From NCBI GenBank assembly GCA_947455845.1, contig CANGQE010000001.1:1-30642 (forward strand): a stretch of DNA of 30,642 bases, in the 5' to 3' direction. A model generated the notes under the pieces. That model did no database searches. It was given only the letters and a program-made list of their open reading frames with translations, and was not told where the DNA came from. This DNA is from Rickettsiales bacterium. GTDB taxonomy: Bacteria > Pseudomonadota > Alphaproteobacteria > Rickettsiales > UBA1997. The position numbers and the translations under genes were made by a program. This document shows positions 2,097-29,421 of this stretch, piece after piece. Position 1 is the first letter of the stretch; each line of letters starts with the position of its first letter.

Positions 2097-2907
2097 ATTT
2101 TTGAAATTTTAAGTAAATTCGTGTAATCAGAGCAGCGAGCAGAAAGCATACCAACATTGAAACCAAAGTATCACCAAAAAAATGCGCCCCTTTGGCCATT
2201 TGGTAGAAACCCATGATCCAACCAAGGATAATGGCACTTATCAAGCCTAAACAGCGCTGTGATCTTCTTCGCAAAGCAAAAAATAAAATCATTAGAGTAA
2301 AGCCTGTAACCGAGTGACCGGCGGGAAAGCATTGAGCTTTTTTAGCTTGGTGAAAACTTGAAGGATAATGTTCAAAAATTCGGATGTAAGGCTTGTCCCC
2401 GCCGTATATTTCAAGCTGGGTAGGGCAATAAACGTTGGTAAATTTTTTGATATTGCCGGCGATTAAAGGTATGAAGGAAAAGCCGAAGAAGATTAGAAGG
2501 AGGCGGTGGCGATGGCGGATAAGGAAATTTGATTTTGGAATAGATCCTGAAACAAGTTCAGGATGACGGAGAGGGGATAATTGAGAGTTACTGTAGCGCA
2601 AAGCTAAAGCATTGTCATCCTGAACTTGTTTCAGGATCTGTTTCGAATCTCTAAACCCCAAAATAACTCCAAGCAAACATCCCGTAACCCCAACACCGAA
2701 TAAAATCTTCGGTAATTTATAAAAAATAAATTTTTTGACGGGCTCATTTTTATCAACCAGCCAAGACTTACTTTCGAAATCAAATAAATAATTTTGTACT
2801 TCAATGTCAAAATTACCGTAATTAATCCAGCACAAAGCCAATGCTATCAAAACTAGATCAAGGATGATCCAAAAATCAATTTTACTTAAAATTTTTGAGT
2901 TTCTCAT
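2089..2907 (-). CDS. PAP2-family membrane phosphatase containing an in-frame 33-aa repeat-derived insertion
   Basis: [16 protein letters not shown] and GAHFFGD motifs with TM segments; start moved to ATG 2907 (MRNSK), since the longer ORF lies within the upstream gene; ATGACTAA overlap with thiC. Confidence 0.85.
2542..2639. repeat. Family B inverted-repeat doublet inside the PAP2 CDS
   Basis: Perfect 26-bp arms at 2542-2567 and 2614-2639 (GTCATCCTGAACTTGTTTCAGGATCT), identical to the intergenic copies at 11023-11117 and 23233-23322. Confidence 0.95.
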
Positions 2908-4825
2908 TTTTAAATAAATGGCTTGCGACCTGATAATAGCTGATGGCATCATCTAATTTCTTAGCTTCATATTCTTGGATTAAAACTTCCTTAGAGCCAT
3001 TCCAGCCGTATTTTTCAATAGTTACGTCAAAAACTTTTTTCTCTTTCTTGGGCTTGAGTAAATACAGCCTGTCGCCTTGAAAATAGCCAACATACGAGTA
3101 AGTGCTGACGAAAGAATGTTGATCAATAGTTTTGGAATTATTGATTACATCGGTACCGAAAAATTTTGATTTGTAACTCAAGTTCATCAATCCCATTAAG
3201 GTGGGAGCAATATCAATTTGGCTGACATTTTTATTAAAAACCTGCGGCTTGATAATTTTGGGAGCGTAGAAAATTGCTGGAATTTGATAGCGCCACAAAG
3301 GCACGTCAGTATTACCGGCCGAACCGGCGCAATGATCAGCAACTAAAACAAAAATGGTATTTTCAAACCACGGTTTTTTGCTGGCCTCTTCGATTAATTT
3401 CCCGATAGCGTAATCAGTATATTTCACCGCACCGTTACGACCGGTTTTTGAATCAATATCAATTTTGCCCTCAGGATAGGTAAAGGGACGATGATTAGAA
3501 GTAGTCATAATAAAGCTAAAGAATGGCTTACCAGCGGCATAAGATTTATCAGCTTCTTTGATGGCTTTATTGAATAAATCTTCATCAGCAACTCCCCACG
3601 CATTTGAAAAAGAAATTTCTTCTTTGGAAAATTGGGGGCGATCAACAATTTCAAAACCATTATTTTCGTAAAAATAATTCATGTTGTCGAAATAGCCGTC
3701 ACCACCATAAAGAAATTTGGCCTCGTAGCCACGATCTTTAAGGGGACTGGAAATATTAAAAAGATTTTCATTATTAGATCTTCTTACAATTGAATTTCCG
3801 GGTGTTGGCGGTATTGAAAGAGATAAAGCCTCTAATCCTCTAACCGTACGCGTTCCTGTCGCTTTCATGTTAGTAAAAAACAAACCTTCTTTAGCTAAAC
3901 GATCAAGATTTGGCGTAATATTTTCTTCGCTGCCAGAGGACTGCAGGAACTCTTCACTTAGGCTTTCAATCGCAACTAATATTACATTGTATTTTTTTTC
4001 TGTGCCATTTTTTGGCTGAGCAATTAAGCGCGAGATATCTTCTTCATTTAAGAATTTAGAAGAAGGCTCTTGTTTAGAAATTAAATTACGCAAATTAGCT
4101 AAAGCCTCTTTGGCATCTTGAGTTGCGTAAAGCTGGTCGTAGTCAATCTGATTATTGCGATAAGCTGAGAAGAGTTGGTAGATGCCATTTGAGGCAATTT
4201 CTTTGGCGTAATTATTTTGGAAAACTTTGCCCAATTTTGAACTATCGACGCTAAAGAATGCCGCTACTAGGACTGATGCAAATATTGCAAAGTTTTTAAG
4301 ACGAGAAGAGAAATTTGCGATCTCCGGAGTAATAATTTTTTTATAAGTTAATAAAAAAATCGTCGCTGAAGCTGCAAAAATCAAGCTCACCAATATGCCC
4401 ATTGGGTAAGATTCCATGATATTAGAAATTACTTCCGTAGTGTAGATCAGGTAATCAACAGCAATAAAATTAAATCTGGTTTGAAATTCATCCCAGAAAA
4501 CTATCTCCGAAAAAACTGAGAAAGTAATCACGAATAAAAACAGAAAGTAAAAAATTCTATTGATAATTTGATGTTGTTTTGCCGAGAAGATTTTAGCGGG
4601 AATAAAAGTGTAGTAAGCTAGAGGAATAAGGGCTATGTAAGATATGCTTAGTAAATCAAAAAAGAATCCGATGGTGTAAATTTTTAACAAAAGTAGTGCC
4701 GAAAAATCAATTTCGGCTCTTTGTAAAAATAAAAAAACCGCACGTATCCCGAAAGACAAAACGGCGAAAATAGCAAAAATTTTTGCCCAAGAAGAAGCCT
4801 GAACAAGGCTGAGAAACTTTTTCAT
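2882..4825 (-). CDS. LTA synthase / phosphoglycerol transferase-like sulfatase-superfamily membrane protein
   Basis: N-terminal multi-TM region with FWDEFQTRFNFIAVDY; ESLS, catalytic-Thr region TGTRTVRGLEA, TTSNHRPF and VADH motifs. Confidence 0.88.
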   Translation of the reverse strand: MKKFLSLVQASSWAKIFAIFAVLSFGIRAVFLFLQRAEIDFSALLLLKIYTIGFFFDLLSISYIALIPLAYYTFIPAKIFSAKQHQIINRIFYFLFLFVITFSVFSEIVFWDEFQTRFNFIAVDYLIYTTEVISNIMESYPMGILVSLIFAASATIFLLTYKKIITPEIANFSSRLKNFAIFASVLVAAFFSVDSSKLGKVFQNNYAKEIASNGIYQLFSAYRNNQIDYDQLYATQDAKEALANLRNLISKQEPSSKFLNEEDISRLIAQPKNGTEKKYNVILVAIESLSEEFLQSSGSEENITPNLDRLAKEGLFFTNMKATGTRTVRGLEALSLSIPPTPGNSIVRRSNNENLFNISSPLKDRGYEAKFLYGGDGYFDNMNYFYENNGFEIVDRPQFSKEEISFSNAWGVADEDLFNKAIKEADKSYAAGKPFFSFIMTTSNHRPFTYPEGKIDIDSKTGRNGAVKYTDYAIGKLIEEASKKPWFENTIFVLVADHCAGSAGNTDVPLWRYQIPAIFYAPKIIKPQVFNKNVSQIDIAPTLMGLMNLSYKSKFFGTDVINNSKTIDQHSFVSTYSYVGYFQGDRLYLLKPKKEKKVFDVTIEKYGWNGSKEVLIQEYEAKKLDDAISYYQVASHLFKNEKLKNFK

Positions 4826-4829
4826 ATGA

Positions 4830-5219
4830 TTACTTTTTAAACATCTGCAACATACGCCAAGTCACAAAAAACCCACCAAAGATATTTACCGAAGCAATCA
4901 TGATTGCCAAAAAACTTAGAATCGACATGAATGAGAAAGTAGTTGCCGAACCAAGCGCGATTATTGCGCCCACTACAATTACACCAGAAATTGCGTTAGT
5001 AACTGCCATTAAAGGCGTGTGCAAGGCGGGAGTTACTTTCCAAACTACAAAATAACCAACGAAACAAGCTAAAATAAAAACAGTCAGACCAAAAACAAAA
5101 GGGTCAACTCCACCACCGTGGCTGGCATCGTAGCTTAGTTCGGCAATCTTATTTATTAAGAGGTCGGAGCTTTTAGTAATTTGATCGGAAAGCTCGATGA
5201 TTTCTTGAAGGCTGCTCAT
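4830..5219 (-). CDS. pntA: NAD(P) transhydrogenase subunit alpha part 2 (membrane domain, PntAB type)
   Basis: [18 protein letters not shown] and [18 protein letters not shown] signatures. Confidence 0.95.
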
Positions 5220-5255
5220 TTTAGAGGATTAATTGATTAGTAGATTGATGCCTCG

Positions 5256-28459: not shown

Positions 28460-28471
28460 TTTTTTAAAAAA

Positions 28472-29356
28472 ATGTCAGTTTTAGTTAATAAAAATACCAA
28501 ACTTATCTGCCAAGGCTTCACCGGAGCTCAAGGTACTTTCCACTCTGAACAAGCAATTGCTTACGGAACTAACATGGTTGGCGGAGTTACACCGGGAAAA
28601 GGTGGATCTACTCACCTAGCTCTACCGGTTTTCGACACCGTATTTGACGCTAGAAAAAAGACTGACGCTAATGCATCAGTAATCTACGTTCCACCTCCAT
28701 TCGCTGCTGATGCTATTATTGAAGCTATCGAAGCTGAAATTGAATTGATCGTTTGCATCACTGAAGGCATCCCTGTTCTTGACATGGTTAAAGTTAGAAA
28801 AGCTTTAAGCGGTTCAAAATCAAGACTAGTTGGCCCTAACTGTCCGGGTGTTATCACTCCGGGTGAATGCAAAATCGGCATCATGCCGGGTCACATTCAC
28901 AGAAAAGGTTCTATCGGAATTGTTTCTCGTTCAGGAACTTTAACTTACGAAGCCGTTCATCAAACTACTCGCGCCGGATTAGGCCAAAGTACTTGTATCG
29001 GTATTGGTGGCGATCCTGTTAACGGAACCAACTTTATTGATTGCTTAGACCTATTCTTGTCTGACCCTGAAACTCAAGCCATGATCATGATTGGCGAAAT
29101 CGGTGGATCTGACGAAGAAGAAGCTGCAGAATTCTTGAAAGCCGAAGCTAAAAAAGGCCGCTTCAAACCAACAGTAGGTTTCATCGCTGGCCGCACTGCT
29201 CCTGAAGGACGCAGAATGGGTCACGCCGGTGCGATTATTTCTGGTGGTAAAGGTGGAGCTGAAGGCAAAATTGATGCCATGAAATCAGCAGGAATCTCTG
29301 TTGCTGATAGTCCAGCATCTCTTGGCAAAACTATGGTTGAGCTACTTAAAAAATAA
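28472..29356 (+). CDS. sucD: Succinyl-CoA synthetase alpha subunit
   Basis: [20 protein letters not shown], phospho-His motif RMGHAGA. Confidence 0.98.
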
Positions 29357-29368
29357 TTTTTAAAATTC

Positions 29369-29421
29369 ACTCGTGACGAGGTGGACCCCGCACTTGCTGC
29401 AGGGTCCACCTCGTCACGAGT
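29369..29421. repeat. Collapsed family C doublet forming a single long hairpin (possible terminator after sucD)
   Basis: 20-bp perfect stem at 29369-29388/29402-29421 around CGCACTTGCTGCA; right flank identical to 21282-21298. Confidence 0.88.

Follow-up and report, generated by a model that had tools for sequence, protein, structure and literature searches.

GTC-tagged hairpin repeats of a Rickettsiales genome as probable relatives of CGTC-tagged REPs and Ssn-related motifs

The window analyzed here, a stretch of 30,642 nucleotides that constitutes contig 1 (CANGQE010000001.1) of the Rickettsiales assembly GCA_947455845.1, carries three families of short tagged hairpins, designated B, C, and D, that mostly stand in inverted pairs. 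Very probably, these are three lineages of the CGTC-tagged repetitive extragenic palindromic (REP) superfamily, or Ssn-related motifs (SRM), read by nucleases of the Ssn family. As such, B, C, and D are unlisted variants of the described CGTC-REP/Ssn system; they constitute neither a new system nor one driven by REP-associated tyrosine transposases (RAYT), the enzymes favored in a first-pass annotation of the sequence. A very dense repeat population is thereby assigned to a system whose partner enzyme has been described, and a natural but wrong guess is corrected.

CGTC-tagged REPs were described as four families, found mostly in Alphaproteobacteria, with an unpaired CGTC or TGTC tag, a stem of 8-9 bp opening on an A·T pair, a loop of 4-5 nt, and a 3-nt tail (Di Nocera, De Gregorio and Rocco, 2013; PMC3733652). 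Head-to-head dimers predominate, intragenic units occur, no transposase has been linked to these repeats, and the Rickettsia palindromic elements (RPEs) of R. conorii end in CGTC (Di Nocera, De Gregorio and Rocco, 2013). The Ssn proteins, which include SsnA of Neisseria meningitidis (CDD cd10448), are small GIY-YIG nucleases that act site-specifically on single-stranded DNA; their genes are typically boxed by tagged hairpins of their own, termed NTS in Neisseria and SRM elsewhere (Chenal et al., 2025; PMC11893778). Four purified members, namely SsnA and three homologues that include one of Wolbachia (Alphaproteobacteria), each cleave their own motif and do so in single-stranded DNA only. Binding depended critically on the C after the palindrome and cutting on the three bases before it, and Ssn-driven insertion of repeats was left as a hypothesis (Chenal et al., 2025).

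B, C, and D share a common plan: the (C/T)GTC tag is unpaired, the stem has 8 bp and is closed by an A·T pair, the loop has 5 nt, and the tail begins with C. The first-pass annotation had read a GTCA tag, a 7-bp stem, and a 5-nt loop; the loop length holds, but in computed DNA folds the last base of GTCA forms a pair with the T of the downstream TC, so the stem has 8 bp and the tag, which is unpaired in these folds, is (C/T)GTC. The GTC is invariant, and the preceding base is C (50%) or T (46%) in B and T in more than 90% of C and D copies, while the tails read CT(A) or CC(A). The first stem pair is A·T in all three families, followed by T·A in B and by C·G in C and D. The conserved unit exceeds the originally described 26-mer by a few bases in B (…CTATT) and by 10-14 bases in C and D. 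Whole doublets fold into long hairpins; fold energies of single B and C units are given in Table 1.

The stems bear the mark of compensatory change. Three stem pairs distinguish B from C, each of them compensated as the annotation had claimed, and two more, likewise compensated, distinguish C from D. What had been taken for a variant of C belongs instead to the third family, D, with the consensus GTCACCCCGTCTTCACGACGGGGTCC, of which the window copy at 17140 is a slightly damaged member with a G·A mismatch. For a broader view, an alignment was built from those sequences in 119 loci of other genomes that differ from B by at most six mismatches, chosen by similarity and not by pairing; shuffled patterns found none at this threshold. 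Together with the three window types, the 68 distinct variants made up an alignment of 71, in which 94.7% of cells are paired. Both-side changes occupy 65 cells, compared with 16.1 ± 3.0 when partners were shuffled (0 of 500 shuffles as high), and an offset of one to three columns between partners lowers pairing to 22-53%. Covariation, which the first-pass annotation had named as a check on its reading, is thus clearly present. Both the upstream GTC and the C after the palindrome are retained in all three families, and across the 71 variants from many phyla their conservation is at least 90%.

At least 119 genome stretches carry the exact 26-mer of B, including some from isolate genomes, such as those of Pedobacter, Salegentibacter, and Christiangramia. 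Among the matches listed, the host labels include Bacteroidota, Alphaproteobacteria, Patescibacteria, Spirochaetes, Elusimicrobia, Melainabacteria, and others, and B usually adjoins sister variants that differ from it by compensated pairs. Exact C was found in metagenome-assembled genomes labelled mostly Alphaproteobacteria, and DNA of the window was detected in lake and freshwater metagenomes; the host is thus probably an uncultured alphaproteobacterium of fresh water whose genome is small. A search of Rfam returned no family covering the hairpins, only sub-threshold chance matches resembling microRNAs, and a literature search with the literal repeat sequences found no match. An origin from cyanobacterial small dispersed repeats was considered and rejected, as only 10 HIP1 sites were counted in the genome and the records of exact C are labelled mostly Alphaproteobacteria.

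The assembly comprises 188 contigs, none shorter than 3 kb, that total 1.31 Mb at 39% G+C, with an estimated completeness of 76% and a genome size of roughly 1.7 Mb. Allowing up to four mismatches, it holds 341 copies (234 of B, including 186 exact ones, 64 of C, and 43 of D), a density of approximately one copy per 3.8 kb. These are arranged as 133 doublets and 75 singles; 108 of the doublets join two copies of a single family head to head, and 91 of the 133 are B-/B+. Hairpins with an 8-bp stem and a 5-nt loop that carry a GTC tag number 323 in the assembly, compared with 23-69 for nine control trinucleotide tags. The genome-wide pattern search proposed with the annotation thus returned a large and tag-specific population.

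Doublet spacers had been described as unique. Instead, most B spacers fall into a single family of ~25 nt (AGTAACTCTARAATCTCCC...), present in either orientation and ~20% diverged from the nearest neighbor, and some carry extra short modules, such as one of 21 nt. Both arms equal the consensus in 67 of the 91 B doublets; identical arms around spacers so diverged are better explained by continuing selection or homogenization of the arms than by neutral decay. Complementarity between the outer flanks past 3 nt is barely above chance, so that an origin of the doublets by fold-back copying is poorly supported. The 21-nt module, AATGCTTTAGCTTTGCGCTAC (window 2593-2613, reverse strand), recurs in doublet spacers on 8 contigs; like a unit of ~24 nt resembling TTGTTCCTTCGGGCAACCTAAAG, it is a short spacer module that in relatives also occurs in tandem arrays adjoining Ssn loci.

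The repeats are patchily distributed within the genus, the genomes of which are given G-numbers (G000 being the present assembly); a C with a number after such a code denotes a contig, and L-numbers denote loci. Among 44 congeneric species, B copies range from 0 to 218, with zero in 26 species, C and D copies together range from 0 to 129, and the combined count ranges from 0 to more than 300; the reversed-pattern control gave 0 in every one of the 44. Insertion sites vary as well. The doublet within the PAP2 gene (window 2542-2639) is in frame, and its site is empty in the orthologues of G046, G018, G008, G045, G004, G017, and G043, while the same spot holds a different C-like doublet in G014 and a single B in G015. 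Two further in-frame inserts lie on contig C18 of the present assembly: the first (2196-2260) adds 75 nt relative to empty orthologous sites in 2 species, and the second (8691-8767) adds 72 nt relative to such sites in 5 species. Target-site duplications were sought at these three clean insertion sites, and none were seen. Copy number and insertion site thus vary among related genomes, which supports this part of the REPIN-like reading in the first-pass annotation.

Doublets located within open frames of at least 150 amino acids number 24 of 133, versus 78% of random segments; most elements are therefore intergenic, and genes tolerate a minority of them. At the 11027 locus, the flanks differ among relatives and other GTC-hairpin types are found there, which renders the orthologous comparison unclean. 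Public lake-metagenome contigs over window positions 2001-22000 end inside B and C doublets, and their joints are repeat cross-mappings; the D-variant locus (17140) is bridged by contigs from two lake-metagenome studies. One B doublet (G000:C48:6976-7052) lies inside an open frame of 576 codons, and a uvrC-type GIY-YIG match was found on the same contig.

The partner enzyme was sought by unbiased clustering of open reading frames (ORFs) over the 119 cross-phylum loci with exact B. The only small protein to recur among them is a GIY-YIG nuclease of ~95 residues, the gene for which is boxed at a distance of 4-46 nt by inverted hairpins, B among them, in two loci, which belong to a gammaproteobacterial and a Sulfurovum genome, respectively. 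Within the genus, small GIY-YIG proteins form three families, and those flanked by hairpins belong to the Ssn clade only (100/100), the other two families being unflanked. Proteins of the Ssn clade consist of a GIY-YIG domain alone (89-102 aa), and 17 of the 24 genes encoding them have GTC hairpins within 160 nt, in "+" orientation on the left and "-" on the right; in many cases each side bears a head-to-head doublet, of which the flanking hairpin is the inner member. Exact B boxes orthologous Ssn genes at G015:C62, G048:C133, and G049:C43, and a compensated B variant flanks an Ssn pseudogene in G043. Likewise, C boxes the Ssn genes at G012:C31 and G007:C33, and D boxes those at G015:C39 and in G050 and G051. 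Ssn genes of other species are boxed by further hairpin types, of which those in G003 and G041 match the Neisseria NTS consensus.

Hairpin type follows nuclease phylogeny. The nuclease tree contains a B clade (100/99), a clade of C plus D (98/96), an NTS-like clade (97/96), and one unflanked clade, and hairpin type requires 7 label changes on this tree compared with 15.6 in shuffles. A cognate Ssn was found in 8 of the 16 genomes with at least 20 B, C, or D copies versus 3 of the 28 others, a comparison between kin that are not independent and between assemblies that lose repeat-boxed genes. The annotation had proposed a single structure-recognizing machinery for all subfamilies. Definition by structure and tag, with covarying stems, is borne out, but because the B-flanked and C/D-flanked nucleases fall into separate, well-supported clades, a single machinery is doubtful, and there are probably two nuclease lineages, one for B and the other for C and D. 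Judging from the boxed genes, the B, C, and D hairpins would be the substrates of these particular nucleases.

In relatives, tandem half-site arrays directly adjoin the full hairpins around Ssn genes (L355:1311-1500, L326:1792-1981, and L342:549-738), and such arrays also occur in distant phyla, upstream of a B copy (L057, L058, and L068). Their unit consists of the tag, the 5′ stem arm, and 6-9 nt, with a period of ~17-24 nt, and they may be the footprint of a process acting at the tag; no such arrays were found in the present assembly. A second abundant repeat, with the core GGTCTCGACTCCGCTCGACC, is present in 132 copies on 75 contigs, including one in the window (30608-30632, reverse strand). 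Inverted doublets of this repeat box another small GIY-YIG gene, of a non-Ssn family, on both sides (G000:C100:4610-4891; locus L286), and a variant with matched changes at both ends adjoins related genes in G007 and G021. The single GGTCTCGACTCCGCTCGACC unit forms no hairpin (z 0.5); only the doublet folds. This repeat and its GIY-YIG gene may represent a second, possibly undescribed nuclease-repeat pair.

Several observations weigh against assigning B, C, and D to the CGTC-REP/Ssn system. The degenerate SRM search string in the literature matches the NTS control but none of the three consensus sequences (B, C, and D), and it has only 15 matches in the genome, 12 of which are variant C copies. 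Because this string was hand-built from 29 genomes, the mismatch bears on the string more than on membership, and censuses based on it would undercount the family. No Ssn-clade gene was found in the present 76%-complete assembly, and its two small GIY-YIG genes belong to the non-Ssn families. Similarly, no B-type Ssn was found in G012 with its 131 B copies, and no cognate Ssn was found in G020 (81 C/D copies) or G041 (129 C/D copies). A GIY-YIG nuclease forms no covalent DNA intermediate, so cutting alone is insufficient for insertion, and in head-to-head doublets the expected cut sites lie inside the unit, not at its ends. With respect to the missing gene, a 300-bp reading frame boxed by high-copy repeats may easily have been lost from an assembly that has no contigs below 3 kb, and public contigs break inside the doublets, although this is an excuse and not evidence. 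The cognate Ssn genes of the present genome would accordingly reside in its unassembled quarter, unless they have been lost. Weak tblastn matches to Ssn on contigs C9 and C10 were traced to a ribosomal protein gene and trmD and were rejected as nuclease remnants.

The first-pass annotation instead regarded the repeats as REPIN-like elements mobilized in trans by an HUH Y1 transposase (RAYT/TnpA-REP). The tagged hairpin, the inverted doublets, and the hundreds of copies do resemble REP/REPIN, and the inverted-doublet organization stands; the genome also contains one Y1_Tnp gene with HUH and Y motifs, its sole Y1/HUH gene, which encodes at least 292 aa and is cut by the contig end (G000:C84:1-876, reverse strand; locus L001). 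It is the enzyme class that fails. The tag is (C/T)GTC rather than GTAG, and in a profile search the gene reached only 52 of the 80 bits required by the REP-associated tyrosine transposase model. Hairpins with the GTC tag were found neither around this gene nor at seven homologous loci of relatives, contrary to the expected repeat-flanked RAYT. Moreover, Y1 presence and repeat abundance do not correspond among 24 congeners: G012 (97% complete) has ~205 copies and no Y1 gene was found in it, whereas G005, G018, and G022 have a Y1 gene and no copies. Nor was any tyrosine transposase gene flanked by CGTC repeats in the original survey (Di Nocera, De Gregorio and Rocco, 2013; PMC3733652). The RAYT hypothesis is thus already largely refuted, and we hold mobilization by an HUH enzyme to be very improbable. 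The annotation was right in placing no enzyme gene for the repeats within the window. Y1 homologues in several relatives likewise lie less than 500 bp from contig ends.

Two other accounts dispense with an active enzyme. In one, the genome, like G020 and G041, has truly lost its nuclease, and the repeats are a non-spreading relic, perhaps kept for host use as mRNA 3′ stabilizers, protein binding sites, or recombination hotspots. Such a loss would agree with the lack of an Ssn-clade gene in the assembly, with the three sister genomes that are 95-97% complete, carry 81-131 copies of a type, and yielded no matching gene, and with the mostly intergenic position of the copies. It is nevertheless unlikely, given the B arms that equal the consensus despite diverged spacers, the absence of about a quarter of the genome and of all short contigs from the assembly, and the breakage of public contigs exactly inside B and C doublets. 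Ordinary structural elements, such as terminators or RNA stem-loops that lack a dedicated enzyme and have become alike by convergence, would account for the stable folding of every unit and doublet and for the several copies directly 3′ of genes. Such elements are very improbable here: the stem is not followed by a T-run, an unpaired tag and tail that are identical across phyla would be useless in a terminator, 24 doublets lie within long open frames, no Rfam family matches, and the specific boxing of Ssn genes would go unexplained.

If B, C, and D belong to the CGTC-REP/Ssn system, the hairpin would be extruded in single-stranded DNA, where a small single-domain Ssn nuclease of the GIY-YIG type would recognize it along with the tag and tail, B being served by an Ssn lineage of its own and C and D sharing another. 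Binding and cleavage of single-stranded DNA would follow the precedent of the characterized Ssn proteins (Chenal et al., 2025; PMC11893778). In some species of the genus and not in others, the doublets would have come to occupy hundreds of sites, some of them in frame within genes, and the nuclease would presumably be needed for this spread. More tentatively, the doublets might be non-autonomous mobile elements that spread by means of the hydrolytic GIY-YIG Ssn, the two lineages (B and C/D) each maintaining its own repeats next to those of the other in a single reduced genome, such that the enzyme's need for an intact tag, stem, and tail keeps the arms identical while the cut spacer decays by ~20%. 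Speculatively, the expected cut sites of both strands of a head-to-head doublet would fall in the spacer, which might explain spacer decay. Ssn-dependent spread, if true, would constitute a route of repeat proliferation mechanistically unlike the HUH "peel and paste". The genus offers natural contrasts for this question, with 0 to more than 300 copies per species, the presence or absence of each nuclease lineage, and in-frame insertions.

Within the window, copies of B, C, and the variant are present where the first-pass annotation had placed them (Table 1): there are 6 exact copies of B, 4 exact copies of C, and, of the D variant, 1 good and 1 degenerate copy, and shuffles of the window sequence contained zero matches to any of the three patterns. 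Inverted doublets had been reported at seven loci. Six are confirmed, five of them head-to-head (tags facing) and one tail-to-tail (5360), whereas the seventh, at 29369, is one tagless palindrome, which, by comparison with the outer flanks of the 21208 doublet, is read as a collapsed head-to-head C doublet with its inner half deleted. Public contigs also break at 6717-6847, 12595-12619, and 20553-20597, where depth rises 5- to 15-fold; these positions mark further repeat families in the window, probably the "family A" elements of the annotation.

Table 1. Tagged hairpins and associated features of the window (positions from the first nucleotide of the window)
Feature	Positions	Strand	Remarks
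B hairpin, left arm, head-to-head doublet	2542-2567	-	Exact match; in frame within PAP2-family ORF 2089-2952(-)
Doublet spacer, 46 nt	2568-2613		Common ~25-nt spacer family plus 21-nt module AATGCTTTAGCTTTGCGCTAC (reverse strand)
B hairpin, right arm	2614-2639	+	Exact match; DNA fold with 8-bp stem and 5-nt loop, -6.1 kcal/mol
C hairpin, left arm, tail-to-tail doublet, tags outward	5360-5385	+	Exact match; fold -9.6 kcal/mol
C hairpin, right arm, tail-to-tail doublet	5424-5449	-	Exact match; spacer holds conserved C tail extension ACCGTG...
B hairpin, left arm, in the adenylosuccinate lyase gene-recQ intergenic region	11027-11052	-	Exact match
B hairpin, right arm	11088-11113	+	Exact match
D-family hairpin, degenerate	17062-17087	-	3 mismatches relative to partner
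D-family hairpin ("C-variant" of the first-pass annotation)	17140-17165	+	One G·A stem mismatch
C hairpin, left arm, head-to-head doublet	21208-21233	-	Exact match
C hairpin, right arm	21262-21287	+	Exact match
B hairpin, left arm, intergenic	23235-23260	-	Exact match
B hairpin, right arm	23295-23320	+	Exact match
Single 53-nt palindrome, no GTC tag	29369-29421		C-type stem-loop (one mismatch) between two inverted C tails; -28.7 kcal/mol, z -10.4

Among known repeats, the REPIN-RAYT systems of Pseudomonas and Enterobacteria resemble the present one in their non-coding inverted doublets, their many copies, and a gene for a single-strand-specific enzyme that is boxed by the repeats, and the logic of the two may be alike. 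REPINs, however, carry a GTAG tag and depend on an HUH tyrosine enzyme with a covalent intermediate, whereas the tag here is GTC and the enzyme a hydrolytic GIY-YIG nuclease, and tests for RAYT membership fail. The dRS3 and intergenic mosaic elements of Neisseria also place tagged hairpins among short modules in mosaic intergenic arrays, although in another host and with other modules, and the present repeats are not known to be linked to transformation. Rickettsia palindromic elements insert in frame into genes. The present repeats recall them in that palindromic units of ~65-100 nt stand in frame in genes of a small alphaproteobacterial genome (the PAP2 gene and the two C18 genes), but most copies here are intergenic, and the likeness noted is one of organization.

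The closest counterparts are the two systems introduced at the outset. With CGTC-tagged REPs, the B, C, and D repeats have in common the tag, the 8-bp stem, the 5-nt loop, the short tail, the dimers, the intragenic copies, the alphaproteobacterial host, and the lack of a link to a tyrosine transposase. A near-invariant A followed by T opens the stem in those REPs, while C and D open on A·T and then C·G, a minor departure. Compared with the Ssn/SRM systems, the present case differs in that three lineages coexist in a single assembly of 1.3 Mb, where copies occur about every 3.8 kb and no cognate gene was found. It nonetheless shares with them the upstream GTC, the C directly after the palindrome, the hundreds of copies, and the enrichment in Alphaproteobacteria, as well as, in sister species, the motif-gene-motif boxing and the co-variation of nuclease and hairpin type.

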